This document shows positions 10,066 through 41,192 of a DNA stretch of 64,000 bases, in pieces; positions within the stretch are counted from its first letter, which is position 1, and the number at the start of each line of letters is the position of its first letter. This stretch comes from Thermoguttaceae bacterium (GTDB taxonomy: Bacteria; Planctomycetota; Planctomycetia; Pirellulales; Thermoguttaceae). The translations under genes and the position numbers were made by a program. Under the pieces are notes generated by a model. The model worked only from the letters and a program-made list of their open reading frames with translations, did no database searches and was not told the DNA's origin. Where the stretch lies: positions 36,369 through 100,368 of the forward strand of contig JAXGMN010000031.1 in NCBI GenBank assembly GCA_040768665.1. The letters are read 5' to 3'.

Positions 10066-11718
10066 ATGGGAACACTCGCCCTGGCAGCCTTATTGGTTTC
10101 CGCGCACACGTTCATCTACGATGCGGAAGTGCTGCCGAACGAGGCCTCGCCGCCGTGGTCGTTTCGGGAGACCGCGAACTGCTCGGTCGCTGTTGAAGAC
10201 GGGACTCTCCACGTCCGCGACGATGGCACGGCGCATGGCCAATTGCAGTTCATCAGCTATCCGTGGGAGGCGAGCGCGGGGCTGCCTCACAGCGTCGAAG
10301 CGAGGGTCCGCGTGGCGGAATGCTCCGGTCCGGCGGGAGTCGTCCTGCTGGCGGCGGACGGCGTTCGCGAGATCGGCCTGACCCTGTTTCCCGACCGGAT
10401 CGAGATCCACCGGCTCGAGGTCCGCGCCGACGTCAACCTCGCCGACGATTTCCACGCGGTTCGGCTCGAAATGGCCGGCGACGATGCCGCGGTGAAGGTC
10501 GATGGCCGGCTGGTGCTTGACCTGGCCGGCAAGTCGATTTGGGACGCTCACGATGACCGAAACCTTGTCGGCTTCGGCAGCCTGAGCTCTGCGGCCACTG
10601 GCGAAGCATGGTGGGACTCGGTAAGCTGGTCGGTCGAGCAGCCCGAGGTTTCGGTCTACCCGAACGCCGAGCACCATATCGTATTCAAGCAGGACGGTGT
10701 TTACGCCTGCTTTCCGAGCCTCTATCAATACGACGACGGCACGCTGGTAAGCAGTTTCGGTACGCGGGTGCACCGCAGCCACATCGACCCCACCGGCGGC
10801 TCCGCCCGGAGAGTCAGTCGCGACGGGGGCGTTACCTGGAGCGATGCCGGAGCTGATGTGCCGAGCTATAACCCGGCTGCGGTTCGCGCCGACGGCCATT
10901 TGGCACTGGCAAACGCCATCGGCTGGCGCTACACGGACGAACGCGAATCGGAACGGTTGAAGGCGGAGGGACGGACGGTTCGCGACGTTCGACCGGGCAC
11001 GGTGGCCTACCTGAGCGGCGCCCGCTCGATGGTCCGCAGTATTGGTGGTCAGGTGATTCGCCCGTGGACCGAAATCGAGGTGCCGCCGGGCGGAGGGATG
11101 ATGACGTTCCACCAGGCTGCCTACCTCAATCTTGGCGATGGGGTGCGCCTGGTGGGCATCTACGGCACGGGGCCGACGGGACGCCGCAGCGCGTTCGTGC
11201 TTAGGACGGAAGACGACGGGGAAACCTGGATGTGTCTGCCGATGGCCCCGGGCGACGAGCGGATGAGCTACAACGAGACCGCGTTGGGAGCCAATGCCGA
11301 CGGCCACGTGATTGCACTGATGCGGACTGCCGAATCGGTGGACAAGAAACAGGCCGGTAATCTCTACCAGGTAACGTCGACCGACCGCGGCAAGACCTGG
11401 TCCAAGCCTGTCAACACCGGCATCTGGGGCTATCCCGCTCACCTGCTCCGTTTACCCGACGGACGACTCATGGCGACTTACGGCTACCGCCGGGCGCCGA
11501 AGGGAATCCGCGCCTGCCTCAGTCGCGATGGAGGAAAAAACTGGGACCTCGATCATGAAATCATTCTCCGAGCCGACGGTTTTGGCAGCGGCAGCGATCT
11601 CGGGTATCCGATCACCACGCTCTTGTCCAACGGGGTGCTGGCGACGGTCTACTACTTCAACGGCGTCGACAACATCACGCACATTGCTCTGACCCGATGG
11701 AAGCCGCCCGCAAGGTAA
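10066..11718 (+). CDS. Secreted BNR-repeat glycosidase (sialidase-like beta-propeller) with N-terminal lectin-like domain
   Basis: 550 aa. Signal-like N-terminus. At least four BNR/Asp-box motifs (DGGVTWSD, DDGETWM, DRGKTWSKP, DGGKNWD). Confidence 0.7.
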   Translation: MGTLALAALLVSAHTFIYDAEVLPNEASPPWSFRETANCSVAVEDGTLHVRDDGTAHGQLQFISYPWEASAGLPHSVEARVRVAECSGPAGVVLLAADGVREIGLTLFPDRIEIHRLEVRADVNLADDFHAVRLEMAGDDAAVKVDGRLVLDLAGKSIWDAHDDRNLVGFGSLSSAATGEAWWDSVSWSVEQPEVSVYPNAEHHIVFKQDGVYACFPSLYQYDDGTLVSSFGTRVHRSHIDPTGGSARRVSRDGGVTWSDAGADVPSYNPAAVRADGHLALANAIGWRYTDERESERLKAEGRTVRDVRPGTVAYLSGARSMVRSIGGQVIRPWTEIEVPPGGGMMTFHQAAYLNLGDGVRLVGIYGTGPTGRRSAFVLRTEDDGETWMCLPMAPGDERMSYNETALGANADGHVIALMRTAESVDKKQAGNLYQVTSTDRGKTWSKPVNTGIWGYPAHLLRLPDGRLMATYGYRRAPKGIRACLSRDGGKNWDLDHEIILRADGFGSGSDLGYPITTLLSNGVLATVYYFNGVDNITHIALTRWKPPAR

Positions 11719-14044: not shown

Positions 14045-15451
14045 TCAGTTGGTCTCCGCGAATGTGCCGCCCAGACTGGCGGTGGGGTCGTCGGTCAGCG
14101 GCACGAACGGCTGCTGTTCGAGGAAGCTCACGAGCTTCTGCGACGCGCCCGGCTCTTGGAGCTTCCGCAGGGCCTTCGTTTCGATTTGCCGAACGCGTTC
14201 CCGCGTCACCGAAAAGATCTTGCCGATTTGCGAAAGCGTATAGCAGTGGCCGTCGGCTAACCCGTAGCGATGGCGAATGATCTCCCGCTCGCGGTAATCG
14301 AGCAGTTTCAGGGCATCGGCGATTCGTGACCGGAGGAGTTCCCGATTCATCTCGTCGAGCGGATCGTCCTGGCGGTGGTCACGAAGCAGATCGCCGATGC
14401 TGCACTCGTCCTGCCCGACCACCGGCTGATCGAGAGACAGCGGGGGACGATTCATCCGCAGGGCCCGGTTTGCTTTGGCCACCGAGACGTCGGCCGCTTT
14501 GGCCATGTCTTCGACCGAGGGTTCCGAGCTATTCTCCTGGACGAGCGACTGATTGATCGAGCGGACCTTGCTCATCGTCTCGATCATGTGGATGGGTACT
14601 CGGATCGTCCGGCTCTGGTCGGCAATCGCCCGGGTAATCGCCTGGCGGATCCACCAGGTGGCGTAGGTGGCGAACTTGTAGCCGCGAGAACACTCGAACT
14701 TGTCGACCGCTCGCATCAGCCCGGTGTTCCCTTCCTGGATCAGGTCGAGGAAGCTGAGTCCGCGGTTCCGGTAGCGTTTGGCAATCGAAACGACCAGACG
14801 GAGATTTCCGGCGGCGAGGAAGCGTCGGGCATCCTTGAGCCGCCGGTCGACCCTCTCCACGCGAGCCACACGCTTCCGCAACGTCGAGGGGCTTTCAAGC
14901 GTCGCTACCATCAACCGGCGAAGTTGTCGGCGGAGATCGCGGGCGGACTGGTGATTCTGGTCGCGATCGGCCAGTTGCCGGCCCAGGCGGTCCATCTCGC
15001 CCGAGATCTGCTTGAGTTCATCCAGCAGCGGCTGAATCTGCTGAGACCGCAAGCCGAACTCCTCGAGCAGAACGGCAGCCTTGGCCCTGCGGCAAGTCAG
15101 GCGCCGCCAGGCTTCGCGCCGCTTTGCTGGGGAAGTCGAGCGGCTGATGGCAACCGCGAAATCGCGGCGGTTTTCCGCGAGCAGGTGCCGAATGGTGCGG
15201 AGGTTTGGCTCCATCAAGGCAACCATCCGCTGTTTTTGGGGGACATCGGTCATCGAAACGTCCAAGGCCCGCTCGATTCGCTCTTCGCCATCGGCAATAC
15301 TTTCAAGCAACCGAACGGCTGCGGCAAGCGCGTAGTCCGTGGCGAGCACGCCCTCCCGGTAGCGCTTGCGAAGAAGCTCAATCCGCGTGGCTGCGGCGAT
15401 TTCCTCGCGACGCGTCAACAAGGGCGTATCGCTCATCTGTTCCAGATACAT
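14045..15451 (-). CDS. RNA polymerase sigma-70 family factor (RpoD-like, group 1/2)
   Basis: Region 1.2 [21 protein letters not shown]. Region 2 [56 protein letters not shown]. Region 4.2 [27 protein letters not shown]. The ORF track extends to 15607. The start is placed at the Met of MYLEQ. An upstream GTG is possible. Confidence 0.8.
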
Positions 15452-15840
15452 GCGAACCGCGCCGACTTCAAGATTTTCCACGCGTGGCTCCTCAATTCCG
15501 ATATGCGTGACGTGTTTCGCTGCGCACGGCGAACCTGGGCATAAGCGCGCCTGGGAAACCGAGGCCGACCGGCGACACCGCGACCGCGCACCACCGTGCG
15601 TGACCACCTTGCGGCAAAGGCCGGCACCGGAAAATTAGATGAGTTGACTCGGACTGCCGTAGCCGGTGCCGCCCAGGACAGTGCCGCAGATGCCTCTCTC
15701 TACTGCAAATACGCAGGGCTTCCGGAAAGGGTTGCACGAAAACGACGTTATTTGCCGCTTTTCTCCGTCGTATTTTCGGGTGGGTATATGCCGGTCAAGG
15801 TGCACATTTGCGCGGAGAAGATTCTGGCTGACCTGTCAAT

Positions 15841-17577
15841 TTGGTGAATATTTTCCGGTTCTGTCAGGTTTTCCGAAAAAATGAGATGCGACAACCAAAA
15901 AAGACTTTAAGGGCGGCTAGCTTGGGGGCCGATAATGAGCCGCAGACCATGATTGGTCGTTTCAGAGCCATGCGGGGGGGCACCCGTTTCCTGGCGAGTC
16001 GAAATTCCATGGCGCTAGCAAAACAGATTTGCAACGCGGGTCGGCAACGGTCGGTCAGATTCCATGTCGCAGTAGGGGTTCTGTTCATTCTGGCCGGCGC
16101 CGGTTTGGGACCTGCGGGAGCCGATGCCCAGCAGGCGGCCTCGCGGACCCCTCCGTGGCAACGTACGCCCACCACCCAATCAGTTCGCATAGTCGGGGCG
16201 GAGACGGCCACGGTGCCCACTGCGGTACCTGCAACCTCCACGCCACGCGCCGCGGCGCCTTCGACGACGAGCAGAAGCTTCACTCGCGCGCGGCAGGCGT
16301 CACAGATCACCTACTCAGACGCAGACGCTGTCGTCGAGGCCGCTCCGGGCGAGGTCTACTACGAAGGCGACCCTTCGATCGCCAACTCCATTACGATGCC
16401 AGGGCCCGTGACGTCCGGCTGCACCGATTGCGGGACTCCCGGAATGGGCGTTCCCGGCATGGGAATCGGCGAAGCGTTCTGGGGCGCCGGCGACGTGTAC
16501 GACAGCGGCGCGGCTTTCGTCCCATGGTGGGGGTTCGCCCCCGGGCGACTCTGGGTGCGTGGCGAGTCGCTGCTTTGGTGGACGGAAGGCACTCGCTTGC
16601 CGCCGCTGGTGACGACCAGCCCTCAAGGAACGGACCAAGAAGATGCGGGAGTCCTGCCGGATGCAACGATCCTTTTCGGCGACCAGGAAGTCAACGACGG
16701 CAGCCGTTCGGGCGGGCGGATCAGTTTCGGGCTGCGGCCGAATGAGTGCAGCCCTTGGGGAATCGAGACGAGCTACATGCGGCTCGGCTCGGAGTCGACG
16801 TCCTTCTTCGCAGAAGGCCAAAACGGCAGACCGATCCTGGCCCGGCCTTATTTCGACATCGAGGCGAATGAAGCCGCCGCGGCTCTCATCTCGTTCCAGG
16901 GCGAAGAAAACAGCTTCCAAGGGGAGGTTTCAGCCCTGGCGGCCGTCACTTTCCAGGGACTCGAACTGCTCATGCGGCGCCGGGTCTCCGACTGGTGCAC
17001 GGGAAGCTTCGACTTCATAGCAGGCTGGCGTTACTGGCGGTTGGACGACGATCTGATCATTGGCCAGGATGTCGACCGTCTGACCACTCCACAGGCAAAC
17101 ATCCAAGTGACCGACCGCTTCCTCACCGAGAACCGATTCAACGGTGGTGAAATCGGCTTCGTCACCGAGACGCAGTGGTGCCGATGGTCGTTCGGCGCAC
17201 TGCTCAAAGTTGGCATCGGCACCACCGATTCCCGTGTGACCATCGCCGGAACCACGGTCGTCGACGACGTTACGGACAACTACGGGTTGCTCGCCTTGCC
17301 GTCGAACATCGGCGTGTACAGTGATGACGAGTTTGCCATGGTTCCGGAGTTCGGCCTCACGGTGGGCTACGATTTGACGTGCAGACTGCGGGCGACGTTC
17401 GGCTATACGCTCATCTACTGGGGCGGGGTTGCCCGCGCGGCGGACCAGGTCAGCCTGGATCTGAACATTCCGAACGACAACGACCGGCAGGTCGGGCTTG
17501 CCCGTCCGGAGTTCCCGTTTGCAAGAACCGACTTCTGGGCCCAGGGTCTCAATTTCGGCCTGGAGTACCGCTTCTAA
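15841..17577 (+). CDS. Outer-membrane beta-barrel protein, candidate member of the planctomycete BBP7-type family (family-level guess from general features)
   Basis: The signal peptide MALAKQICNAGRQRSVRFHVAVGVLFILAGAGLGPAGADA sits internally, so the true start is probably 15886 or 16009. Ser/Thr/Pro-rich linker. The C-terminal half has alternating aromatic/hydrophobic residues and ends in ...GLNFGLEYRF with a terminal Phe, typical of OM barrels. Confidence 0.5.
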   Translation: MVNIFRFCQVFRKNEMRQPKKTLRAASLGADNEPQTMIGRFRAMRGGTRFLASRNSMALAKQICNAGRQRSVRFHVAVGVLFILAGAGLGPAGADAQQAASRTPPWQRTPTTQSVRIVGAETATVPTAVPATSTPRAAAPSTTSRSFTRARQASQITYSDADAVVEAAPGEVYYEGDPSIANSITMPGPVTSGCTDCGTPGMGVPGMGIGEAFWGAGDVYDSGAAFVPWWGFAPGRLWVRGESLLWWTEGTRLPPLVTTSPQGTDQEDAGVLPDATILFGDQEVNDGSRSGGRISFGLRPNECSPWGIETSYMRLGSESTSFFAEGQNGRPILARPYFDIEANEAAAALISFQGEENSFQGEVSALAAVTFQGLELLMRRRVSDWCTGSFDFIAGWRYWRLDDDLIIGQDVDRLTTPQANIQVTDRFLTENRFNGGEIGFVTETQWCRWSFGALLKVGIGTTDSRVTIAGTTVVDDVTDNYGLLALPSNIGVYSDDEFAMVPEFGLTVGYDLTCRLRATFGYTLIYWGGVARAADQVSLDLNIPNDNDRQVGLARPEFPFARTDFWAQGLNFGLEYRF

Positions 17578-17604: not shown

Positions 17605-17639
17605 ATCGGTGCGGCAGGCCGCCGGTCTGCCGCACCGAT
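17605..17639. terminator. Perfect 13-bp stem hairpin between convergent genes
   Basis: ATCGGTGCGGCAG-gccgccggt-CTGCCGCACCGAT. Confidence 0.4.
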
Positions 17640-17663: not shown

Positions 17664-17706
17664 CAGCAGCCCGGCTGCTCCAAAGCAGCCGGGCTGCTGT
17701 TTGATA
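17664..17706 (+). terminator. Intrinsic terminator of the OM-barrel gene
   Basis: Perfect 15-bp stem CAGCAGCCCGGCTGC-tccaaa-GCAGCCGGGCTGCTG followed by TTTGAT. Confidence 0.5.
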
Positions 17707-17747: not shown

Positions 17748-20700
17748 TTATTGGTTCCAGTCGCCGATTAGTTCGAGGACGTAGTCGATCGTCTGCCGCT
17801 CCACGGTGTCGTCGCCGCCGGCTTCGGAGATCGCCTGCATACGTTCGAAAGCGATCAGCTCGGCAAGGTAGTTGACGCCCGAGACGGTCGCCTTGTTGCC
17901 CGTGGCCGTGAGGTCGTCGTCACCGGTCGAATCGTAGACGATGGCGTTGTCGTCGCCGCCTTTGCCGTCGGCCTTCATCTCCTCGGCCCCGAAGACCTCG
18001 ACCATGTAACCGGCCCCGCGGAGCACGCCGTAACCGGGCCTGATCCGCGCCTCGTCGGCGCCGGCCTTGCCGTTGAGAGTCACCTTGTCGTTGCCGCCGA
18101 GGGCGTCGAGCATGAAGACGTCGACCTCGTCGGCGGAATAGGTCGTTGTCTTGCCGTTGACGACCACCGTGTGTGAATTCGCTCCCGCAGTGAACTGGAT
18201 GTCGTCGTTGCTCGAAGTCCCGGTAATCTTGACCTTCTTGATCCCGGTGAAGCTCGAGAAAACCTCCTCGCAGCCAGGCGTCGAGTTGAGGAAAAGGCGG
18301 ATGCCGACATACTGCGGATTGATGCCGGCCTCTGCGAAATTGTTGTCGGTAATGTGCGAGCCCGATTCCAGGACGATATTGGTAATTGAATTCCCGTTGG
18401 CGGTTCCACCCCCGCTGCCGGCCTCGGCCTTGCCGTCGCGGAACTTTGCGGGCTGGGTCTCGACGACTTCGTACGTGCCGGCCGGGATATCCTTGAACAG
18501 GTAGAAACCATCGGGGCCGGTCTTGACCGTTGCCACGTCGGACCATGTGGCGGTGTCGCCGGTGCCGGTCTTCTGCCGGAGTTTCACCGTCACGCCCGCC
18601 AGGCCCATATCGCCCTGGGTGCCGTTGCCGGGTCCGGCGTAGCCGTCCTGGCCGTCGCCCTCCATGTAAACGATTCCGGAGAGGCTGCCGCTGCCGACAA
18701 GAACCGAGATCGTCTCCTGATCGGTCTTTGCGCCGCCCGAGCCGGTGTTGCCCTTATCATTGGCCGTCACCTTGAGACTGTCGCTGCCGGCGTAGTTGGC
18801 GTTGGGCTTATATTTCAGGCCATTGGTGGCGGCCAGAGTGGCGTTGATCTTGGCCACCGTTCCCTTGAGGACCACTTTGGCGGTGCCGTTGCCGCTGACA
18901 CCGCCGGCTGCCACGCCCCCGCTCACGTTCGTCAGCACGGTCAATGTGCCGTGGCTCACCTCGAGCGTGACCTCGATTTCGCCGGTTCCCGCATCGGCAT
19001 CCGAAACGGAGATCCCGGTGATCTCTCGCTCCCCGTTCTTCGGTGCGACGACCGAGGCCGGCACGGTGAGCACGGGCGCGGCATTCACACCGGTGACGGT
19101 GATGGCAACCGTCTCCTGATCGGTCTTCGCGCCGCCGGTGCCGGTATTGCCCTTGTCGTCGGCCTTCACTTTGAGGCTATCGGCTCCGGTGTACGTGGCG
19201 GCCGACTTGTACTTCAGGCCATTGGTCGCGGCCAGCGTGGCATTAACCTGGGAAAGCGTTCCTGTGAGAACGATCTTGGCGGTGCCGTTGCCGCTGACAC
19301 CGCCGGCCGCCACGCCGCCGCTGACGTTGGTCAGCACGGTCAGCGTGCCGTGGCTCACCTCGAGCGTGACCTCGATCGCACCCGTCGCGGCATCCGGATC
19401 GGCGATGCTGATGCCGGAAATCGCCAGATCGGTGTTCTGGGCGATCGTTTTCGCGCCGGGCACGGTCACGACAGGCGCCTGGTTGGCCGTGGTTACCGTG
19501 ATCGAGAGATTTTTCGTCGCCGTCTTGGCGCCGCCCGACCCGGTATTGCCCTGATCGTTCACCGTAACTGCAAGCGTGTTGGGCGTGGTCGACTCGGTCG
19601 TGCCGCGATACTTCAGCCCGCCCGAGGCGGCCAGGGTGGCGTTGATCTTGGCCACTGTGCCGGTCAACGTTACGGTCCCGGTTCCATTGCCCTGGATATC
19701 CGCCGTGGCAAGACCGCCCGAAACGTCGGTCCGGAGCGTGAGACTGCCATGGCCAATGGCAAGCGTGACGACGACGTTGGCGGTGCCGGCATCGACGTCG
19801 GCGATGCTCACGCCGGAGACTGCCAGGTCGGTGTTGGGCGCGACGGCGAGTGCCGAGGGAACCGTGACCTGCGGAGCGTCGTTGACCGCGCTGAGCGTAA
19901 TGGAGACGGTCCCGCTGCCGCTCTGCGCCCCGCCGGTACCGGTATTGCCCAGATCGTTGGCCATCACGCTTAGCGTGGCGGTCGTGGTGTTGTTGGTCAG
20001 CCCCTTGTACTTTACTCCCTGGGCGTTGGCCAGTGTGGCGTTGATCTTCGCCCGGCTGCCGGTCAGCGTTACCGATGAGGTGCCATTGCCGGAGATATTC
20101 GAACCGGTAAGACCGCCAGAAACGTCGTTCTTGACGGTCAGGGTGCCGTGTGTCACGGTCAGCGTGACACGGATATCCGAAGAACCGGCATCGGCGTCGG
20201 CGATGCTGATGCCGGTGATGTACTTGTCGGTGTCTTCCGTGGCGCTCTGGGTTCCGGGAACGGTCACCACCGGGGCCTGGTTGGCGCCGGCCACGGTAAT
20301 TGGCAGATCCTTGATGGTCGTTTTCGCGACGCCGGAGCCGGAGTTGCCTTGGTCGTTGGCCGTGATGGTGAGCGTTTCGGGGCCGGTATAGCCGGTCGTG
20401 CCGCGGTACTTGAGCCCGGCCGAGGCATCCAGCGTGTTCTTGATCTTGGCCAACGAGCTCGTCACGGTCACCGTGCCCGTGCCGTTGCCGACCACGTCAG
20501 CCGCCACCAGGCCACCCGTCACGTCGGTCTTGAAGGTCAGCGTGCCGTGGTCGACCTCGAACTTGACCTCGACCGTCGCGCTGCCGGCGTCGGCGTCGGT
20601 GATGCTGATCCCGGAGAGCACAAGTTCCGCCCCCGACGGCACCGCCTGTTCGCCGGGGATCGTGATCACCGGGGCGTCGTTGACCGCCGTGACGGTAATC

Positions 20701-22625
20701 GCGATCTGCTCGGCATCGCTCTTGGCGCCGCCGGGACCGGTGTTGCCCTGGTCGTTTGCCGTGACAGCCAGGGAGTCGGCGCCGACATAATCGGCCTGTC
20801 CCCGGTAGACCAGCCCCTGGGACGCAGCCAGCGTGTTATTGATCTGGGCCAGCGAACCGGTGAGAACGACCGACCCGGTGCCGTTGCCCTGGATCTTTGC
20901 GGCGGTCAGTCCGCCGGAGACGTTGTCCTTCACCGTCAGCGTACCGTGGGCGACCGCCAGCGTGACGCGGATTTCGGCCGAAGCGGCGTCGGGATCGTGG
21001 ATGCTGATCCCGGCGATCGCCAGGTCGGTGTCCTCCGCCACGGTTTGTGCGGTCGGAACGGTGACGACCGGAGGCTGGTTCGCGGCGACAACAGTGATCG
21101 TTACGGGTTTCTGGACGCTCTTGGCTCCGCCGGAACCGGTGTTCCCCTTGTCGTCTACAGCGATAGTGAGCGTTTCCGATCCGGTATAGTTCGTGTCGCT
21201 GACGTATTTCAGCCCTTGCGAGTCCGCCAGAGTGGCGTTGATTTGGGCGATCGTACCGGTCAGGGTGACCGTCTTCGTATGATTGCCCTGGATGTCGTCA
21301 GCGGTCAGCCCACCGGTGACGCCGGTTTTTACCGTGAGCGTCCCCTGAGCGACCTCGAGGGTTACCTCGACGTCGGCGGTGTTCGCGTCCACGTCGGCGA
21401 CGCTGATTGGGGTCACAAACAGATCCGCGCCGGTGCCGACGGAGAGGCTGGTGGGAGCCGCGATGCTCGGAGAATCGTTCACGGCCGCCACGGTGATGGC
21501 AACCTGCTTGGTTTGGCTTTTCGCGCCGCCCGCGCCGGTGTTCCCTTGGTCATTGGCCGTGACCGTCAGGCTGACATTGCCGTTGAAATCGGCGTTGGGT
21601 ACCGTGTAGGCGACGTTGGCGTCCAGGGTCGCGTTGATTTGCGACACGGTTCCGGTAAGCGTTACGATGCGCGACCCGTTGCCGCTGACCGCAGCACCGC
21701 CGCTGACCGTTTGCACGGCAAGCGTGCCGGAATTGGTGGGAATCGCCAGCGTGACCACGATCTGGCTCGTCCCCGCGTCCGGGTCCTCCACGCTGATGCC
21801 GCTGACCGTCGCCGTGGCATTGGCCGCCTCGTTCACGTTCGGACCCGTGACCGGCACGGTGACCTGCGGCGCGTCGTTGGCGTCAGTCAGCGTGATCGTC
21901 AGCGACGCGCTGTCGTCGGGCGTCTGGCCGATGGCCGGATCGTCGATGGAGACGGTCACGTCGAGTTGCGGATTCGTCTCGAAGTCGAGCGGGGCGCCCG
22001 CTTTCAGGTACAGGGCAACAGAACCATCGAGTTCGAACAGGTCGGCGTCGGCGCCGCTGAGCGACAGCGAATTGTTTCCCTCGCCGTCGTCGACGATCGC
22101 GAGGTCGGCCACTTTGCGCCGGACCGACATATCGGTATCTTCCGATAGCGTGGTTGTGGTGTTCACCAGGTCGATGGTCGGCGGAGCATTCGTCGCGGAG
22201 TCGTTGTCGGTGATCGCCACCGTGACGTCGTCGATCTCGATGCCGTCGTAGCTGGCGTCCTCGCTGGTCGCGGTGTGCGCGATGATGCCGTTGTGGTCGC
22301 CTTCCACGTCGGTGTCATCGATTGCCGAAACCGTCACCTCCTGCACCTGGTCCCAATTGTCCGGAGTGAACGTCAGCGATTCCGGAGAAACGTCCAACTG
22401 GCCATCCGGTGTGAGCGTGATCACCACGTTGGCGGCCGGCTCGGCGTCGAGCACAACCTCATACGCGGCAGTGACGCCGCTCTCGCTGACTTCGACACCC
22501 CCTGTCGGCTCAGTGATTACCACAGCCAGCAGGGTCCGCTGTTCGAGCGGTTCACATCGCAGGTGGCGGTTCAGAGAACGGCTGACGTTGCAGTTGCGGC
22601 GGAGAAGGCGGGACAACGACTTCAT
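17748..22625 (-). CDS. Giant secreted/surface repeat protein: basic N-terminal leader, about 10-11 tandem ~98-aa cadherin-like/Ig-like repeats (each ending VNDAP or ANQAP), SdrD-B-like domain and a conserved Gly/Asp-rich C-terminal module
   Basis: 1625 aa. Leader MKSLSRLLRRNCNVSRSLNRHLRCEPLEQRTLLAVV. Tandem repeats of the pattern NDAP-VT-P...GISI.D.DAG....V.V.LAV.HGTLT...GNGT..V.LTG.....INATLA...GL.Y.....G.D.L.V.ANDQGNTG.GGAK. C-terminal SGIVYMEGDGQDGY...AGTYEVVETQP (SdrD-B-like). Then GGNDKVTLNG, GKGGDDNAIVYDSTGDDDLT and AGGDDTVE, which are beta-roll-like. Ends WNQ. Confidence 0.8.
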   Translation of the reverse strand: MKSLSRLLRRNCNVSRSLNRHLRCEPLEQRTLLAVVITEPTGGVEVSESGVTAAYEVVLDAEPAANVVITLTPDGQLDVSPESLTFTPDNWDQVQEVTVSAIDDTDVEGDHNGIIAHTATSEDASYDGIEIDDVTVAITDNDSATNAPPTIDLVNTTTTLSEDTDMSVRRKVADLAIVDDGEGNNSLSLSGADADLFELDGSVALYLKAGAPLDFETNPQLDVTVSIDDPAIGQTPDDSASLTITLTDANDAPQVTVPVTGPNVNEAANATATVSGISVEDPDAGTSQIVVTLAIPTNSGTLAVQTVSGGAAVSGNGSRIVTLTGTVSQINATLDANVAYTVPNADFNGNVSLTVTANDQGNTGAGGAKSQTKQVAITVAAVNDSPSIAAPTSLSVGTGADLFVTPISVADVDANTADVEVTLEVAQGTLTVKTGVTGGLTADDIQGNHTKTVTLTGTIAQINATLADSQGLKYVSDTNYTGSETLTIAVDDKGNTGSGGAKSVQKPVTITVVAANQPPVVTVPTAQTVAEDTDLAIAGISIHDPDAASAEIRVTLAVAHGTLTVKDNVSGGLTAAKIQGNGTGSVVLTGSLAQINNTLAASQGLVYRGQADYVGADSLAVTANDQGNTGPGGAKSDAEQIAITVTAVNDAPVITIPGEQAVPSGAELVLSGISITDADAGSATVEVKFEVDHGTLTFKTDVTGGLVAADVVGNGTGTVTVTSSLAKIKNTLDASAGLKYRGTTGYTGPETLTITANDQGNSGSGVAKTTIKDLPITVAGANQAPVVTVPGTQSATEDTDKYITGISIADADAGSSDIRVTLTVTHGTLTVKNDVSGGLTGSNISGNGTSSVTLTGSRAKINATLANAQGVKYKGLTNNTTTATLSVMANDLGNTGTGGAQSGSGTVSITLSAVNDAPQVTVPSALAVAPNTDLAVSGVSIADVDAGTANVVVTLAIGHGSLTLRTDVSGGLATADIQGNGTGTVTLTGTVAKINATLAASGGLKYRGTTESTTPNTLAVTVNDQGNTGSGGAKTATKNLSITVTTANQAPVVTVPGAKTIAQNTDLAISGISIADPDAATGAIEVTLEVSHGTLTVLTNVSGGVAAGGVSGNGTAKIVLTGTLSQVNATLAATNGLKYKSAATYTGADSLKVKADDKGNTGTGGAKTDQETVAITVTGVNAAPVLTVPASVVAPKNGEREITGISVSDADAGTGEIEVTLEVSHGTLTVLTNVSGGVAAGGVSGNGTAKVVLKGTVAKINATLAATNGLKYKPNANYAGSDSLKVTANDKGNTGSGGAKTDQETISVLVGSGSLSGIVYMEGDGQDGYAGPGNGTQGDMGLAGVTVKLRQKTGTGDTATWSDVATVKTGPDGFYLFKDIPAGTYEVVETQPAKFRDGKAEAGSGGGTANGNSITNIVLESGSHITDNNFAEAGINPQYVGIRLFLNSTPGCEEVFSSFTGIKKVKITGTSSNDDIQFTAGANSHTVVVNGKTTTYSADEVDVFMLDALGGNDKVTLNGKAGADEARIRPGYGVLRGAGYMVEVFGAEEMKADGKGGDDNAIVYDSTGDDDLTATGNKATVSGVNYLAELIAFERMQAISEAGGDDTVERQTIDYVLELIGDWNQ

Positions 22626-22878
22626 GGGAGCTTATCCTCGGGTGACACTTGATGGAGCAGGCTGCACCACTTGTGAGACCACCCCTAATGGGGCAGTCTG
22701 AACGAGCGATCCAGCAGCTCGGTACTCTGTTCCAGGGAGTGGTGAGCCTGAGCGGGTCGAACGGACAATGGGAGAAGTTAGCTCGGCGGTGGTGGTGCGA
22801 GGACAACGACCTGTGTGAAGTGCCTCTTCAGTGGTCTGATCGCCTACTCGCCCGCCCGTGAGCGTGTGCTAAGACTTC

Positions 22879-22907
22879 ATGCTAATCTCGATTTAGAAGC
22901 GCAACAA
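22879..22907 (-). promoter_or_regulatory. Sigma70-like promoter of the cadherin-repeat giant gene (conserved with the paralog promoter)
   Basis: Minus-strand sense TTGTTG-N17-TAGCAT. The same architecture and ~55 nt of flanking sequence are conserved upstream of the second giant gene. Confidence 0.45.
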
Positions 22908-23004
22908 CCTGCGAAAGTTCCCGATTTTGGTGCTGTTTGCCGTCGAGAAGCCGGCTGTAGGGATTATTCGCCGCGGAGCGCGGGCGAGAGTCTGCTGGAG
23001 ACTT

Positions 23005-23023
23005 CCCGGCAAGCGGGACCTGC
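23005..23023. repeat. Half copy of the intergenic palindromic repeat family (GGCAAGCGGGACCT arm)
   Basis: CCCGGCAAGCGGGACCTGC matches an arm of the repeat at 41587-41609. Confidence 0.35.
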
Positions 23024-23068
23024 GAGCCGGCAGGGAAACGAGTCGGAAAAGCCCGCCTCGAACCTGGC

Positions 23069-26000
23069 CTACGGTTGATCCCAGCCGCCTTCGAGCATCA
23101 GCACGAAGTCGATCGCGTCTTGCTCTGCGGTGTCGTTCCCTCCCAACTCGGATACGGCCCGGACCCGCTCGAAGGCAATCAATTCGGCAAGGTAATCGCC
23201 ATAGTCGATCGTCGCCTTGTTATCGCCGGCGGCCAGATCGTCGCTGCCCGCGGAGTCGAAAATGACGGCAGTGTCGTTGGTGCCCCCTTTGCCGTCGATC
23301 TTGAGGGTCTCCGCATTGAGAGCCTCCACCATGTAGTTCGAGCCCTTGAGGCTGCCCCATGCTCGCATGGACTCCGCCTGGTCAACTCCCGCGGCACCGT
23401 TCAGTGTAACGCTGTCCTCACCGCCTCCGGCATCGATCGTGAAGACGTCTACCTCGCTGGCGGTATAGGTCGTCGCCTTGCCGTTGACGGTGACCGTGTG
23501 GGAATTCGTCCCGGCAGTGAAAACGATCGTGTCGGCCCCCGAGGTTCCCTCGATGAACACCTCCTTGACGCCGAGATGATCGCGGATGATGGTCCGCGAG
23601 GAGGGTGTGGAGTTGAGGAACAGGCGGATCGAGATCGACTCAGGCTCGATGTTGGTTTCCGCGAAGAGGTAGTCTTCGCCGTGTTCGCCGGCAGCCAATT
23701 CGATGTCGGTGATCTTGTTGTTCTCGGCCGTCCCGCCCGCTGTGCCGACAGTCTCCTTGCCGTCGGCGAAGTCGTTCGGCTGCGTTTCGAGAACCTGATA
23801 GGTTCCGGCCGGCAGGTTATCGAATAGGAAAACCCCGTCCGGCCCCGTGGTAACGGGTGCAACGCCAGCGACGTCTTCGTAAGTTCCGTCCTGCGAGTTT
23901 TTCTTCTGGAGCTTGACTGTGACGCCCGGCAATCCCATCTCGGTCGGCAAACCGTCGGCATCGAGATCGCGGACGCCATCGTTGTCGGTGTCGAGCCAGA
24001 CATAACCGGAAAGACTGCCGTTGCCATCGTCGTCGGCGATATTCACCGTGGCGCTCTGCTGAGTGCCTACGGTGTAACCCGTGCCGGATTGCAGCGTGAG
24101 CACCGCCGTCTCGGACGCCTCGATTGCAGAGTCGTTGAGCACGTCGAGCGTCACATCAACCGAGGATTGGCCGGCGGGGATGGTTACGGTGGTTCCCGTC
24201 ACGTCCGTCGTTCCGACCTTGAGCACGTAGTCACTTCCCGTGCCGCGCGTGGCGGTTCCGCTGACGGCAAACGTGACGTTTAACGCACTGGTCGTTGAAC
24301 CGGTTCGCGTAATACGGAAGGTCCCATCGTTCGACGGTTCCGCCGCGGCGGCATCGGTCGCGGTGACGGTCACGACCGCGGCTTCGTCGTCGGCGATGTT
24401 CACCGTGGCGCTCTGCTGGGTGCCTACGGTGTAGCCGGTGCCCGACTGAAGGGTCAACACGGCCGTTTCCGATGTTTCGGCCGCCGTATCATCGAGCACG
24501 TCGAGCGTCACGTCGACGAAGGATTGGCCGGCGGGGATCGTCACGGTGGTTCCGTCACGTCCGCCGTTCCGACCTTGAGCACGTAGTCGTTTCCGTGCCA
24601 GCGTGGCAGTTCCGCTGGCGGCGAACGTGACGTTTAACGCACTGGTCGTTGAACCGGTTCGCATAATACGGAAGGTCATCGTTCGACGGTTCCGCCGCGG
24701 CGGCATCGGTCGCGGCCAATCGTGACGACCGGTGTATCGTCGTCGACGATATTCACCGTGGCGGCTCTGCTGAGTGCCTACGGTGTAACCCATCGCCAGT
24801 TGCAGGGCGAGCACCGCCGTCTCGGACGCCTCGATTGCAAAGTCGTCGAGCACTTCCAGGGTCACATCGACGAAGGATTGGCCGGCGGGGATTGTCACGG
24901 TCGTTCCCGTCACGTCGGTGGTACCAACCTTGAGCACGTAGTCGTCGCCCGTGCCGAGCGTGGCGGTTCCGCCGGCGGTGAACGTGACGGTCAGCGCCGC
25001 TTCCGTCGAGCCCGTCCGCGAAATCCGGTAAGTGCCGTTGTTCGACGGCTCTGCCGCGGTTGCGTCGGTGGCCGTGATCGTGACGACCGCCGCATCATTG
25101 TCATTGTCGTCCTCGATCTGGACGGTCGCACTGTCTTCGTCGCCTACCGTGTAACCGGTGCCCGATTGCAGGGTGAGCACGGCCGTTTCGGAATCCTCGA
25201 CCGCCACGTCGTCGATCACCTCCAGGACGACGTCGACCGACGCCTGCCCCGCCGGGATCGCGACGGAGGTCCCGGTCAACACCGTGCCGCCGACGCGGAG
25301 GAAATAGTCGTCTCCCGTGCCGCGAGTGGCGGTGCCGCCGACGCCGAAATTGACCGTGAGCGATCCCTGGGTGGAACCGACGCGGGTGATGCGGTAGGTG
25401 CCGTCGTCTGCCGGTTCCGCTGCGTTGGGATCGACTGCCGCAATGGTCACCACCGGCGGGTCGTCGTCGGCGATGGTCACCGTGGCACTGCCCGCGGTGC
25501 CGACGGTGTACTGCCCCGCCTGAAGCGACAGGATAGCCGTCTCCTGGCTCTCCGCCACGTCGTCGTCAGCCACTTCGAGCGTCACGTCGATGAATGTCTC
25601 GCCGGCGGGAATTATTACAGTCGTATCGGTCAACTCCGTGTCGCCCACTTTGAGAACGTAATCGTTTTCCGTTCCCTGCTCGGCGGTTCCGCCGACGGCG
25701 AAGGTTACTGTCAGCGGCGACTCCGTGGAACCGGTTCGCGCGATGCGATATACGCCGCCGTTGGACGGTTCCGCCGCGTCCGGATCGGTCGCCGAGATGG
25801 TCACAAGGTCGTTATCGGCGATGTTCACGGTGGCTGTGTCCAGCGAGCCCACCGTGTAGCCGGTCGCCGCCTGCAGGGTCAGCACGGCGGTCTCAGGAGG
25901 TTCCTGCAACGAGTCGTCGACCACCTCCAGCGTGACATTCAGGGAGTCCTCCCCGGCGGCCAGGTTGAGCGTTGTACCGGTAACCTCCGTGCCATCGACT

Positions 26001-26614
26001 TTGAGTACGTAGTCATCTTCCTCGCCTCGCTCGGCGGTTCCGCCGATGACAAATTCCACGCTCAGCGCCGCTTCCGTGGAACCGGCCCGCCGAATCTGGT
26101 ATGTCCCATGATTGGATGGTTCCCCGGCACTGGAATCCGCTGCAATGACGGTCAGCACAGGCGGATCATTGTCGGCAATGTTGATGGTGGCGCTGTCGGA
26201 TGTGCCGATCGTATAGCCGGTGCCCTCTTCGAGCGTCATCACGGCGGTCTCGGTAAACTCTGCCGTGGCGTTATCAACGGCCTCGAGGGCAACGTCCACG
26301 GAAGCCTGGCCCGCCGGGATGGTAATGGTCGATCCACTTACCTCCGTGCCCCCCACCTTGAGCAGGTAGTCGGTGCCGCGACTGGCCGATCCGCCGATGC
26401 TGAATTCGACGTCCAACGCGGCCTCCAAGTCGTCGGTTCGCGTAATCTGGAACGTCCCGTTGTCGCTCGGTTCGGCAGCTTCGCCGTCGGTCGCTGTGAT
26501 CGAAACGACTACGGCCAAGAGCGAGCGTTCTTCCAAAGGTTCGCATAGAAGACGTCGGCAGCGAAGGGGATGGCTGACGCGGTTGCGGCGGTGCAGACGA
26601 GAACCTGTTTTCAT
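23069..26614 (-). CDS. Giant secreted/surface protein: same N-terminal leader, ~9 Calx-beta repeats, SdrD-B-like domain and the same conserved C-terminal module. One internal repeat is frame-garbled.
   Basis: The start is placed at the Met of MKTGSRLHRRNRVSHPLRCRRLLCEPLEERSLLAVV (GGAAGG Shine-Dalgarno 7 nt upstream). The ORF track extends to 26689. Calx-beta units have the pattern ATD..AAEPSN.GT.RI.RTGST..L.V.F.VGGTA..G..DY.L..G.T..T...V.IPAG...VDV.L.V.DD...E..ETAVL.LQ.G.GYTVG...ATV.I.DD. The C-terminal ~330 aa align along their length with the C-terminus of the 17748..22625 protein. Region ~24540-24790 reads as a repeat with several indels. Confidence 0.75.
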   Translation of the reverse strand: MKTGSRLHRRNRVSHPLRCRRLLCEPLEERSLLAVVVSITATDGEAAEPSDNGTFQITRTDDLEAALDVEFSIGGSASRGTDYLLKVGGTEVSGSTITIPAGQASVDVALEAVDNATAEFTETAVMTLEEGTGYTIGTSDSATINIADNDPPVLTVIAADSSAGEPSNHGTYQIRRAGSTEAALSVEFVIGGTAERGEEDDYVLKVDGTEVTGTTLNLAAGEDSLNVTLEVVDDSLQEPPETAVLTLQAATGYTVGSLDTATVNIADNDLVTISATDPDAAEPSNGGVYRIARTGSTESPLTVTFAVGGTAEQGTENDYVLKVGDTELTDTTVIIPAGETFIDVTLEVADDDVAESQETAILSLQAGQYTVGTAGSATVTIADDDPPVVTIAAVDPNAAEPADDGTYRITRVGSTQGSLTVNFGVGGTATRGTGDDYFLRVGGTVLTGTSVAIPAGQASVDVVLEVIDDVAVEDSETAVLTLQSGTGYTVGDEDSATVQIEDDNDNDAAVVTITATDATAAEPSNNGTYRISRTGSTEAALTVTFTAGGTATLGTGDDYVLKVGTTDVTGTTVTIPAGQSFVDVTLEVLDDFAIEASETAVLALQLAMGYTVGTQQSRHGEYRRRRYTGRHDWPRPMPPRRNRRTMTFRIMRTGSTTSALNVTFAASGTATLARKRLRAQGRNGGRDGTTVTIPAGQSFVDVTLDVLDDTAAETSETAVLTLQSGTGYTVGTQQSATVNIADDEAAVVTVTATDAAAAEPSNDGTFRITRTGSTTSALNVTFAVSGTATRGTGSDYVLKVGTTDVTGTTVTIPAGQSSVDVTLDVLNDSAIEASETAVLTLQSGTGYTVGTQQSATVNIADDDGNGSLSGYVWLDTDNDGVRDLDADGLPTEMGLPGVTVKLQKKNSQDGTYEDVAGVAPVTTGPDGVFLFDNLPAGTYQVLETQPNDFADGKETVGTAGGTAENNKITDIELAAGEHGEDYLFAETNIEPESISIRLFLNSTPSSRTIIRDHLGVKEVFIEGTSGADTIVFTAGTNSHTVTVNGKATTYTASEVDVFTIDAGGGEDSVTLNGAAGVDQAESMRAWGSLKGSNYMVEALNAETLKIDGKGGTNDTAVIFDSAGSDDLAAGDNKATIDYGDYLAELIAFERVRAVSELGGNDTAEQDAIDFVLMLEGGWDQP

Positions 26615-26706
26615 GGCAGTTTGCCTTCCTGCGCGCGATTTCCGAGGAACTGGTTCAGAAGTGGGCACAAATGACCAATCGCCGGCCAACGCCGGGTCAA
26701 GATTTC

Positions 26707-26979: not shown

Positions 26980-28242
26980 ATGAAACACAACACATTCGCA
27001 ACCCGCCGCCAATTTCTTGCCACGGCAGCGACTGCTGCCGGCACGGTTCTGCTGCCCCGTTTCAACGGACTCGCCGAGACGGATGGAGTCGGCAAAACGG
27101 ATCACTTTTGGTATCGGCTTGCGCCGCCCGACGGCCCGTACATCGATTCGCAGCGCGACAACAAGGCCTTTGCATTCGGTAACGGAAAGGTCTGGCTCTC
27201 CGAAGACAACGCCAAGACATGGGCCCACAGCGCCCCGTTTGCCGATGCCGAAGACATTATGTTCAGCAGCATCCTGAGCAACGGAAACATCGTCTTCGCC
27301 ACGCGAACGAAGATCTACGTGAGCACCGATCATCTCCGAAGTTACCGAGAGCTGACGGTCAAGGATCGCGACGGCCGCCCGTACCTGCCGCACACCCCGA
27401 TCGATCCCAAGCGACCGGGATCGTATTTCTATTCGATCGATGGGATCCACACCTTCGAAACCGATGGCGGGGAAATGCTGATCTGGGGCAACTACTGCAA
27501 TGTTGCGCACGGCGCGGTGCCGGTGAACATCTACTACTCGACCGACCAGGGCGAGACGGTGAAGATCGCGTACGCGTTCGGGCGGAATCCCGATTTCCAG
27601 CAGAAGGGCGCCGACCCCGCAAGCTTGCTCGGCGATCCGGCGAACCCGGTGATTTGCCGCCATGTCCATTCGGTGTCGTACAACCCGGCGGAGAAGGCCT
27701 TCTATGCCTGCACGGGTGACCTCGACCGCGGCAAAGGGAAGGAATGCCACTGGCTGCGCGGCACGTACGACGCGGCGGCGGACTCGTGGGACTGGCGGGT
27801 GCTGGTGTCGTCGGACGCCAACTCGCGCTACAAATCCGGCGGCATCAACTTCGTCGACGGCCAGGTCTATTGGGTCGCCGATGCCAACGGTCCCAAGGCT
27901 CCCGACGAGGCTTACGACCGCGGGATTTTCCGCTGCGATCCGGCGAACCTGGCGGACAAGGCGAAGCACACGCGGATTTTCGACGCCCAGTACGAATTGG
28001 CTACGATGACCATCGACGACCGAATCATCGTGGTCCCGGAATACGGCAACGCCAACCCGTGCGAGACCGGTTTCCTCTTCTCACCCGACCTCGGCAAGAC
28101 CTGGGCAAAGTACGACTTGAAGCAGTTCGGCGACCGTTCGGGTGTGCGCGTGAACCGGCGGAACAGCGACGGCTGGTTCCGCATCTGCCTGCGGGAGAGA
28201 TGGATGAACCGGGCCGAAGTGCTCTTCCTCAAACCGGTATGA
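26980..28242 (+). CDS. Tat-exported BNR-repeat glycosidase (sialidase-like beta-propeller)
   Basis: 420 aa. Twin-arginine signal TRRQFLATAATAAG. Asp-box motifs SEDNAKTWA, STDQGETVK and SPDLGKTWAKYD. Confidence 0.7.
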   Translation: MKHNTFATRRQFLATAATAAGTVLLPRFNGLAETDGVGKTDHFWYRLAPPDGPYIDSQRDNKAFAFGNGKVWLSEDNAKTWAHSAPFADAEDIMFSSILSNGNIVFATRTKIYVSTDHLRSYRELTVKDRDGRPYLPHTPIDPKRPGSYFYSIDGIHTFETDGGEMLIWGNYCNVAHGAVPVNIYYSTDQGETVKIAYAFGRNPDFQQKGADPASLLGDPANPVICRHVHSVSYNPAEKAFYACTGDLDRGKGKECHWLRGTYDAAADSWDWRVLVSSDANSRYKSGGINFVDGQVYWVADANGPKAPDEAYDRGIFRCDPANLADKAKHTRIFDAQYELATMTIDDRIIVVPEYGNANPCETGFLFSPDLGKTWAKYDLKQFGDRSGVRVNRRNSDGWFRICLRERWMNRAEVLFLKPV

Positions 28243-35846: not shown

Positions 35847-36191
35847 ATGCGGATCCGAATCAAGATCCTGAACGATGACCTCAAGTGCGTCGACTTCCAT
35901 TCGGAAGATCTCCCGATTCTCGTGGGAAGCATTGCCGACGCAAATATCTGTGTGGCCGATCCACTGGTCGATCCGCTGCACTGCATGATCGACGGCAACC
36001 GGGGCAGTCTGACCGTCCTCGCGTTGAGCAGCAAATCGGCGACCCTGTTGAACGGAGAACGGATCAGCGAGGCCGAGCTGTCGTCGGGCGACTGCCTGAC
36101 CCTCGGAGCCACCTGTCTGTTGGTCGACTTCGCCCCGCCTCAGCAGCGAGGTGGAGAATACAGAGCCCGCGCGGCAGTTGGTTCCCGCTGA
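35847..36191 (+). CDS. FHA-domain protein
   Basis: 114 aa. GAGAGGAG Shine-Dalgarno. ILVGSIADANICVADPLVDPLHCMI...SKSATLLNGERI...GDCLTLG fits the FHA pattern (G-R...vS..Ha.i....S.NGT.vNg..i...l..gD.i.lG). Confidence 0.55.
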   Translation: MRIRIKILNDDLKCVDFHSEDLPILVGSIADANICVADPLVDPLHCMIDGNRGSLTVLALSSKSATLLNGERISEAELSSGDCLTLGATCLLVDFAPPQQRGGEYRARAAVGSR

Positions 36192-36225
36192 ACGCGTGCC
36201 ATGCGCATGCCTGGAGAATGCTTCG

Positions 36226-36375
36226 ATGAGGAGAAGAGTGCTGGTCGCCGACGACAGCAGCAACATTCGCGAGTACTGCCGGGAAGTGCTCGAGCAGGCA
36301 GGCTACCACGTGGTCACCGTCAAGGACGGCGTGGAAGCACTCGAAACGATTAAGGAAGACCCTCCCGACGTTGTC
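36226..36375 (+). pseudogene. Truncated receiver (CheY-like REC) domain gene, paralog of the complete REC gene at 49868..50323
   Basis: MRRRVLVADDSSNIREYCREVLEQAGYHVVTVKDGVEALETIKEDPPDVV parallels MNTLLFADDRKNIREFCKHELEEEGYRVIVARDGREAVRLVQEEHPDLAILD. REC-like sequence stops after ~50 codons, exactly where the converging antiporter gene ends (36378). The remaining frame reads antisense of that gene. Confidence 0.55.
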
Positions 36376-36377
36376 CA

Positions 36378-41121: not shown

Positions 41122-41192
41122 GTCAGCCGCTCCTCTCGTTGTGCGGTTTCGCCGCGCGGCTTTCCCTTCCGGCCGAAGGCTCGCCGCGATCT

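Follow-up and report, generated by a model that had tools for sequence, protein, structure and literature searches.

Two adhesin-like planctomycete proteins combine a known N-terminal motif with a widespread, unannotated C-terminal module beside a BBP7 barrel gene

Analysis of a 64,000-nucleotide (nt) stretch of DNA from a Thermoguttaceae bacterium (contig JAXGMN010000031.1, positions 36,369 to 100,368 of the forward strand; the window) identified two neighbouring genes, P1 and P2, whose products carry different repeat bodies between a common N-terminal leader and a common C-terminal module. The leaders are recognisable as the Planctomycete extracellular motif PF07595 (Planc_extracel). The module is widespread, is confined to the C-terminus and is unannotated in Pfam and NCBIfam, it co-occurs with the leader, and genes whose products end in its terminal motif (the cap) recurrently lie next to genes of the BBP7 family of outer-membrane beta-barrels, as is the case for P1. 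From these comparisons we infer a possible role of the cap and of BBP7 in sorting or anchoring. The leader half of this arrangement is already known, whereas the C-terminal module and its link to the barrel appear to be undescribed; the literature searched yielded no description of the module, of BBP7 function or of a BBP7-cargo pairing.

Two neighbouring genes with common ends and different bodies

P1 (17748..22625, minus strand; 1625 amino acids (aa)) starts at an ATG with GAGGA located 9-13 nt 5′ of it, and encodes the leader, two N-terminal domains, eight 133-aa cadherin-like repeats, an SdrD_B domain and the C-terminal module. P2 (23069..26614, minus strand; 1181 aa) encodes the leader, approximately 7-8 Calx-beta repeats of ~118-120 aa, an SdrD_B domain and the C-terminal module. 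The open reading frame (ORF) of P2 runs upstream to a TTG at 26689; however, the true start is almost certainly the ATG at 26614, as it aligns with the start of P1 (MKTGSRL versus MKSLSRL) and has AGGAAGG upstream. BLASTP comparison of the two proteins aligned the N-terminal 39 aa (62% identity, E 1e-9) and the C-terminal 319 aa (54% identity, E 5e-95) and found no significant similarity between the bodies, in agreement with the original prediction of two same-strand genes with common ends and different bodies.

The P1 body (18687..21881, minus strand) was delineated using Pfam, NCBIfam and repeat analysis as eight cadherin-like or 'tandem-95'-like repeats of 133 aa, with a period of 399 nt at the DNA level, which replaces an earlier estimate of ~98 aa for the repeat unit. 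It matches Cadherin_4 (PF17803; 42 bits, gathering threshold 25.1) and Cadherin_3 in Pfam, and the P2 body matches Calx-beta (PF03160; 66.6 bits, gathering threshold 27). The SdrD_B-like domain (PF17210; gathering threshold 29.7) scores 31.3 bits in P1 (aa 1334-1415; 18381..18626, minus strand) and 39.9 bits in P2 (aa 867-961; 23732..24016, minus strand). Both proteins are acidic, with an isoelectric point (pI) of 4.3 for P1 and 4.1 for P2, and contain three and two cysteines, respectively. The label 'giant' that had been attached to them was dropped, since the genes, at 4.9 and 3.5 kb, are both below the usual giant-gene threshold of 5 kb (PMC5177795). One Calx-beta repeat of P2 (24425-24778, minus strand) differs from a sister repeat by six 1-2-nt indels, mostly at G/C homopolymers (+1, +1, -2, -1, -1, -1; net -3), so that two patches of ~38 and ~16 aa (SRHGEYRRRRYTGRHDWPRPMPPRRNRRTMT and ARKRLRAQGRNGGRDG are examples) are out of frame while the ORF stays open; these indels may be either sequencing errors or genuine compensated frameshifts.

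The leaders of P1 (MKSLSRLLRRNCNVSRSLNRHLRCEPLEQRTLLAVVI; 22515..22625, minus strand) and P2 (MKTGSRLHRRNRVSHPLRCRRLLCEPLEERSLLAVVVS; 26501..26614, minus strand) had been regarded as unusual, but are of a type already catalogued as PF07595 (Studholme 2004; PMC8567305). Scanning of the N-termini alone matched PF07595 to aa 20-36 of P1 (RHLRCEPLEQRTLLAVV; 22518-22568; E 8.4e-4, 19.4 bits, profile positions 3-19 of 20) and to aa 20-37 of P2 (RRLLCEPLEERSLLAVVV; 26504-26557; E 6e-4, 19.8 bits, profile positions 3-20 of 20), both scores being just below the gathering threshold of 25.5 bits of a model that is short (20 positions) and from whose first basic positions the two leaders diverge. In both proteins a stretch of the RRLxxExLExRxLLA type, the motif of Studholme, Fuerst & Bateman 2004 as given in the summary of that work in PMC3343278, follows a basic stretch within the first ~40-60 residues. 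The context is also that of the PF07595 class, with multidomain cadherin or Calx-beta bodies and nearest relatives named Rhodopirellula sp. and Planctomycetota; the same summary (PMC3343278, citing Studholme 2004) lists Calx-beta, cadherin and thrombospondin proteins as carriers of the motif in R. baltica. In Tuwongella immobilis, the motif is present in 52 genes genome-wide, including 8 of the 10 longest proteins, and eight expressed motif proteins were detected exclusively in the SDS-soluble envelope fraction (PMC8567305). No PF07595-type motif was found in the other ORFs of the window.

The original prediction had also noted that the leader has no ordinary hydrophobic core, and this extends to the family: in the related proteins among the top 150 hits of the module search described below, the leader region lacks a Sec-type h-region, the median of the maximal 10-aa Kyte-Doolittle value being 1.47. 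A cysteine stands directly before EPLE (R/LCEPLE) in P1 (22553-22555), in P2 (26543-26545), in the P1 orthologue at locus L001 and in a further cap-bearing protein at locus L133. A lipoprotein reading of this cysteine was rejected, as there is no upstream hydrophobic stretch or lipobox and the position is occupied by F, L, V or M in most of the family.

A Rhodopirellula metagenome-assembled genome (MAG) carries orthologues of both P1 and P2, located on separate contigs and with different neighbours. The P1 orthologue (L001) likewise has an RCEPLEE leader and shares 74% identity with P1 over 1253 aa, and the P2 orthologue (L002) is 76% identical over 492 aa, whereas identity across the paralogues is just 51-53%, indicating that the P1/P2 duplication predates the split of these species. 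No synteny was detected between the window and the MAG around the orthologues, the flanking genes of the MAG having no homologues in the window. These data bear on the possibility that the shared ends are a local accident, arising from recent tandem duplication or from gene conversion of the 5′ and 3′ ends, and that the barrel gene is there by coincidence. The adjacency of P1 and P2 on the same strand would be expected in that case, and tandem sets of module genes, as in the window, also occur at three other loci (L099, L107 and L049); however, each paralogue has its own orthologue at a clearly higher identity than that seen across paralogues, the orthologues are on different contigs with different neighbours, and the same ends are found on thousands of unrelated proteins. 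A local accident is considered highly improbable, and recent local duplication, which the original prediction had put forward as an alternative source of the C-terminal likeness, is excluded in practice. P1 and P2 are consequently viewed as old paralogues and as adhesin-like surface proteins of a Pirellulales-type planctomycete. At L001 (contig JAAYEH010000444.1, 700-16020), the P1 orthologue is located among four T2SSE-family ATPase genes of the PilB/PilT/GspE type and Tad/TadE-like pilin genes; these T2SSE and Tad genes have no homologue in the window.

A C-terminal module confined to the ends of diverse proteins

The C-terminal module of P1 (192 aa; 17751..18326, minus strand) consists of an RLFLNSTP linker, a start unit (VKITGTSSNDDIQF...VVVNG...), two RTX-like repeats of ~47 aa and the cap (GGDDTVERQTIDYVLELIGDWNQ; 17751-17819, minus strand), and that of P2 (194 aa; 23072..23653, minus strand) also ends in a cap (GGNDTAEQDAIDFVLMLEGGWDQP; 23072-23143); both caps match the regular expression (regex) used to define this motif. 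The last ~192 aa of P1 and P2 have no Pfam match even at E<=10 and no NCBIfam match, and comparison of the module profile with PDB sequences returned noise (E >= 0.18). When a profile of the two modules was run exhaustively with HMMER against 1.84 billion cluster representatives (50% identity), it identified 2258 relatives at E<=1e-3, 1294 at E<=1e-10 and 140 at E<=1e-30. A word-indexed protein search with the 192-aa module found no relatives, and with a 10-sequence alignment it found only five short fragments, one of which is the tail of a frameshift-broken gene and another of which adjoins the module ORF of L015, which stops inside a repeat. The expectation that the module would be found beyond these two genes was borne out by the HMMER search, and its carriers have diverse bodies and mostly a PF07595-type leader.

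The anatomy of the module was derived by mapping the profile onto the top 150 HMMER hits, in which a start unit (V.V.GT.G.D.I.F ... V.VNG ...) is followed by a variable number of repeats, ranging from 1-2 to about 17, and then by the terminal cap. The dominant repeat period is 47 aa (320 instances), with the consensus GG.D.A.LYDSaGDDtFva.Pt.a.LsG.GF.nrA.GFd.V.AyAta, and two RTX-like nonapeptides open each unit, one of them degenerate and the other good (DSxGxDxFx). The cap (e.g. GGNDTA....IDYVL.L.G.W) contains the motif ΦDxΦΦx(3-6)W within ~6 residues of the C-terminus. The array is always C-terminal to the body, with a median start at 51% of the protein length; array and cap end within 12 aa of the C-terminus in 102 of the 150 hits, and a tryptophan is present in the last 10 aa of 134 hits, relative to ~16 expected from composition. 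The bodies vary (S8 subtilases, Big_9, GEVED, cadherin-like and SdrD_B), and those of the family at large include Calx-beta and Ig-like types. An ExLExRxLL-type leader is present in 95 of the 135 hits that start with Met (~70%); several more have variants that fall outside the regex, and the leaderless remainder mostly looks N-terminally truncated.

The module of P1 and P2 represents the minimal form, with a start unit, two repeats and a cap that follow SdrD_B and an R(L/M)F(L)xS(T)P linker, and the same combination is found in P0004, P0084, P0111, P0137 and P0143. Both proteins can accordingly be placed, as minimal members, in a proposed array-plus-cap family for which no database entry was found. 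The named relatives are annotated just as 'hypothetical protein' from Rhodopirellula sp. or Planctomycetota, and a narrow peptide pattern searched over genome contigs gave three loci; as far as these few named records show, the class is restricted to Planctomycetota. An independent sample was obtained with a degenerate DNA pattern for GGxDxAxLxDSxGxD, which identified 120 metagenome loci, 87 of them with a module ORF. In this sample the terminal Trp cap is present in 63 of 84 ORFs with a complete C-terminus, and the leader regex matches 21 of 36 ORFs with a complete N-terminus.

At seven loci (L012, L014, L029, L046, L050, L068 and L073), the module gene has a conserved, divergent upstream gene that encodes a protein of 180-240 aa with no Pfam match and with a LEIGIGNG-like stretch that may point to a methyltransferase. 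Six of these module genes fall into a variant subgroup that lacks the Trp cap (ends like ...ILDQIFGRL) and does not match the leader; the seventh, in L012, does have the leader, and the contig ends before its C-terminus. At L008, an ORF within a module locus (3982-6147, minus strand; ending ...EQAVDEVLNGYWP) is the sole background ORF that matches the cap regex and probably encodes a further protein that has the cap but no recognisable array.

Structure prediction using AlphaFold2 and a 10-sequence alignment gave a confident all-beta model of the module with 17 short strands, including the cap (predicted local distance difference test (pLDDT) 88.2, predicted template modelling score (pTM) 0.81); a 2-sequence alignment had given a poor model (pLDDT 58.8). 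The model is read as a beta-solenoid distantly like RTX rolls. A Foldseek search of the PDB with the model gave no significant match, and the best structural matches, which are weak, are the type I secretion system (T1SS) substrates CyaA RTX, LipA, AprA, AlgE6 and RsaA. A Ca2+-binding beta-roll had been envisaged; the module probably binds Ca2+, as judged solely from its Gly/Asp turn motifs and its acidity.

The structural matches raise the alternative that P1 and P2 are T1SS-like substrates, exported C-terminus first by a system of the ATP-binding cassette (ABC)/membrane fusion protein (MFP)/TolC type that is encoded elsewhere and recognises the cap. Outside the cell, folding of the RTX-like repeats with Ca2+ would then act as a ratchet, and PF07595 would be a retention or cleavage element as in LapA-type adhesins. 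This would account for the family-wide lack of a hydrophobic core after the leader motif, the low pI (4.1-4.3) and 2-3 Cys of the proteins, the RTX-like nonapeptide in each repeat, the T1SS substrates among the best structural matches, and the conserved, position-locked terminal motif, and RTX proteins exported by T1SS (CyaA, LipA, AprA, LapA, MpIBP) are likewise acidic, Cys-poor and without a classical signal peptide, with Gly/Asp-rich repeats near a position-locked C-terminus. However, the repeat of the P1/P2 type is 47 aa long and has a single RTX-like nonapeptide plus a degenerate one, and tandem GGxGxDxUx nonapeptides (PF00353, HemolysinCabind) gave no Pfam match in the modules at E<=10. 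RTX adhesins have a folded N-terminal retention module where P1 and P2 have a conserved short motif, and the recurrent neighbour here is a Sec-exported barrel of another family, with no linked ABC, MFP or TolC genes: no such components were detected among the 32 window ORFs scanned with Pfam, and no ORFs with ABC-ATPase motifs in 614 kb of module loci. T1SS-like export is considered unlikely.

BBP7 barrel genes beside cap-bearing genes

The barrel gene that the original prediction had placed next to P1 is a BBP7-family outer-membrane beta-barrel gene (PF07585, E 3e-98; 16009..17577, plus strand). Its ORF is open upstream to 15841 and scores 329.6 bits on PF07585 (cut-off 26), and the likely start, an ATG at 16009, gives a protein of 522 aa that is 100% identical to database protein P0160 and that has a classical Sec signal peptide and an aromatic end typical of outer-membrane proteins (...GLEYRF). 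BBP7 and P1 are convergent, with stop codons 170 nt apart, and therefore do not form one operon; two strong hairpins between the stop codons (17605-17639, 17 nt arms; 17664-17699, 16 nt arms) are likely to be bidirectional terminators. Comparison of the window BBP7 barrel with PDB sequences gave noise only, and the only mention of BBP7 found in the literature is in a porin survey (PMC4827864).

In a forward test, the neighbours of the module genes were clustered across the 87 module loci. No neighbour gene was universal, and the one recurrent neighbour family (6 loci) was BBP7, with all six members above the Pfam threshold. BBP7 is on the same strand as, and directly downstream of, the module gene in L006, L064, L071, L085, L114 and L120; the same layout is found in L095 (an eighth case), in which an ORF fragment upstream of BBP7 has the cap at its end, and in L104 it is convergent with the module gene at a distance of 38 nt, which is the layout of the window, and is 32% identical to the window BBP7 (E 6e-60). 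The paired barrels are 35-54% identical to one another, with the exception of L006 versus L114 (87%). BBP7 accounted for 7 of 68 immediate 3′ neighbours versus 0 of 211 other neighbours (Fisher P = 4e-5, a value that overstates independence because the six same-strand BBP7 cases are orthologous loci).

In the reverse test, the window BBP7 had 657 homologues at E<=1e-10, which are assigned to Pirellulales, Pirellulaceae and Thermoguttaceae under the name 'BBP7 family outer membrane beta-barrel protein', and the contexts of eight were examined. In four of these (P0167, P0169, P0171 and P0204) a convergent neighbour that ends in the cap is located 12-250 nt away, three of the four neighbours having the leader. 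The neighbour at L129 is a 1422-aa cadherin/SdrD_B protein with the leader LERLEGRELL and a full minimal module; that at L131/L132 is an 853-aa Calx-beta/SdrD_B protein with the leader YESLENRALM, a short array and the cap; that at L133/L134 is a 2351-aa protein with the leader LRCEPLEDRRLLS and no array, ending ALVDAVLEAEEDWLSY; and that at L137 ends EIDAVFALGIWGDQV. The flanking genes differ among the four contexts, suggesting that BBP7 and the cap gene travel as a unit. The cap regex matched 12 of 13 BBP7-adjacent proteins, 37 of 83 module ORFs and 1 of 261 background ORFs, indicating that the cap is the feature that tracks with BBP7, and the BBP7-adjacent proteins of L133 and L137 have the cap without an array, so it can occur without the repeats. 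The BBP7 gene beside P1 is probably not there by chance.

Three further features of these loci were noted. A full-length sigma-70 gene (regions 1.2, 2, 3 and 4; window 14045-15607, minus strand) is divergent from the BBP7 ORF (15841-17577, plus strand), and the same divergent pair is present in four of the BBP7-homologue contexts (L126, L127/L128, L129/L130), with or without an adhesin gene. Comparison of L127/L128 with L129 reveals a presence/absence polymorphism of the adhesin gene exactly at the BBP7 3′ end. At L137 (9251-17233, minus strand), the cap ORF apparently continues an upstream ORF of >5200 aa (PA14, malectin, RHS/YD-shell, fn3), and a giant RHS-type protein may thus also end in the cap beside BBP7.

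The coupling of cap and barrel has to be weighed against the alternative that the module is a generic extracellular Ca2+-binding stalk or adhesive repeat without sorting information, with a purely structural cap and with BBP7 neighbours that are ordinary porins; the module would be shuffled among secreted proteins and would co-occur with PF07595 as both mark extracellular proteins. Several observations weigh against a dedicated sorting function, and most of them favour such a stalk. The cap residues are well ordered within the folded solenoid of the predicted structure (pLDDT 85-95), so that conservation of the cap could be purely structural, and the repeat number varies from 1-2 to about 17, as it does in modules that serve as stalks or provide avidity. 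Some module proteins form a subgroup that lacks both the cap and the leader. Approximately 88% of the module genes with visible downstream DNA have no adjacent BBP7, and the P1 orthologue at L001 has at its 3′ end an ATPase gene of the type II secretion system/type IV pilus type (Pfam T2SSE) rather than BBP7. Conversely, BBP7 orthologues persist without an adjacent adhesin gene: four of the eight BBP7-homologue contexts (L126, L127/L128, L135 and L136) have no cap-bearing neighbour, and L127/L128 keep the order sigma70 - BBP7 - HDOD - 4HBT minus the 1422-aa adhesin gene of L129. No conserved processing-enzyme or transporter gene was found in the 614 kb of flanking DNA.

A generic stalk is less easily reconciled with the position of the module, which is strictly at the extreme C-terminus (<=12 aa in 102/150 hits; Trp in 134/150 versus ~16 expected) and in this respect unusual for a freely shuffled repeat, or with the occurrence, at L133 and L137, of proteins beside BBP7 that have the cap but no array. 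BBP7 is also found exclusively at the immediate 3′ position and at no other neighbour position, and the gene pair has been retained across barrels that are 35-54% identical and in differing genomic surroundings. The stalk explanation is considered possible but doubtful.

A candidate two-part address and its relation to known systems

The preferred reading of these data is a two-part address, comprising the N-terminal PF07595 motif (a basic stretch and ΦExLExRxLL(A/S), with no Sec-type core after it) and the C-terminal module. The variable body, which is cadherin-like or Calx-beta in P1 and P2 and a subtilase or other domain elsewhere, would be the cargo or functional part. The C-terminal beta-solenoid would fold outside the cytoplasm, perhaps with Ca2+, and the cap would serve as the handle for holding the protein at the outer membrane or for passing it through. 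The candidate partner in that membrane is a BBP7 beta-barrel like the convergent one beside P1, and BBP7 paralogues elsewhere in the genome could serve cargo genes without an adjacent barrel. We give an even chance to the core of this proposal, namely that the body is cargo, that the solenoid folds outside the cytoplasm and that BBP7, via the cap, keeps the protein at the outer membrane or translocates it there. A more far-reaching version is held only tentatively and may well be wrong: in it, a Planctomycetota pathway would handle cargo marked by the non-Sec-like PF07595 motif and the cap, usually after a Ca2+-type solenoid, the BBP7 proteins would be dedicated receptors or translocators, and P1, P2 and BBP7 would form one cassette. 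The common export or sorting route that the original prediction drew from the shared ends is thus strengthened in part, as the ends are widespread, do not result from recent duplication and are accompanied by recurrent BBP7 genes; the novelty claimed for the leader did not survive.

Proteins with a PF07595 leader are the closest known relatives of this arrangement. They have the same N-terminal motif, the same types of cargo (cadherin-like, Calx-beta, proteases and very long proteins) and a reported envelope location, but their descriptions cover the N-terminal motif alone, and the C-terminal module and the BBP7 link are not mentioned. The resemblance to the C-terminal domains (CTDs) of the type IX secretion system (T9SS) and to T1SS signals suggested at the outset applies to the logic of a C-terminal element, the module itself being neither a T9SS CTD nor a canonical T1SS RTX block. 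In T9SS, as would be the case here, diverse bodies carry a conserved C-terminal domain that an outer-membrane barrel (PorV) could bind. However, T9SS cargo use Sec signals and an Ig-like CTD of ~80-100 aa (Por_Secre_tail), and the C-termini of P1 and P2 have no Pfam or NCBIfam match to Por_Secre_tail or TIGR04183 and their leader has no h-region; BBP7 is not PorV/FadL-like by sequence, and no T9SS genes were seen.

Type 5 systems (autotransporter and two-partner secretion (TPS)) differ in that the barrel gene here is separate and often convergent, with no TPS domain and no POTRA Omp85 partner; a fused 12-strand barrel (PF03797) was not matched, and the predicted strands of 5-6 residues are too short to span the membrane. 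In comparison with Slam (type 11), BBP7 (PF07585) is not the Slam DUF560 barrel, and cargo of the P1/P2 type is without a Sec-type signal. In dockerin-cohesin systems, similarly to what is proposed here, a small Ca2+-binding C-terminal module on many enzymes and adhesins docks to a cell-bound receptor; unlike the EF-hand-like helix pair of dockerin, the predicted fold here is all beta, PF00404 is unmatched, and no cohesin-like partner was identified. The P1/P2 system would therefore represent a C-terminal-domain-dependent, barrel-coupled form of display built of parts that are non-homologous to those of known systems.

The 32 window ORFs scanned with Pfam are mostly housekeeping genes, and no secretion components were detected among them. 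Genes for beta-propellers of the BNR/sortilin-Vps10 type are located at 10066-11718 and 26980-28242 (both plus strand), the latter lying directly next to the 5′ end of P2 but on the other strand. A third giant repeat-protein gene, suspected at 36-44 kb from the strong positive AT skew (+0.15 to +0.26; 36000-44000, minus strand), was rejected, as the region is an operon that encodes the very hydrophobic subunits of a multi-subunit Mrp/Mnh-type cation/proton antiporter. Between universal stress protein genes lies a gene (45661-46809, plus strand) for a bacterial archaeo-eukaryotic release-factor-like protein (baeRF family 3/7/6, E 6e-48).

Planctomycetes export and retain many very large surface proteins, and PF07595 has carried the label 'putative novel export signal' since 2004 with no mechanism or machinery assigned to it. 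The locus adds a second conserved address element, at the opposite end of the protein, that is present in more than 2000 sequence clusters outside Pfam and NCBIfam and whose short terminal cap motif is directly searchable. It also provides a candidate partner, the uncharacterised BBP7 barrel family, whose hundreds of homologues are annotated by family name alone, so that a vague 'novel signal peptide' becomes a concrete gene pair accessible to deletion, tagging and complex modelling in planctomycetes that are genetically tractable. If the coupling is true, it would improve annotation and the prediction of localisation for planctomycete secretomes, among them the proteases and adhesins that matter for the breakdown of polysaccharides and for attachment to surfaces.

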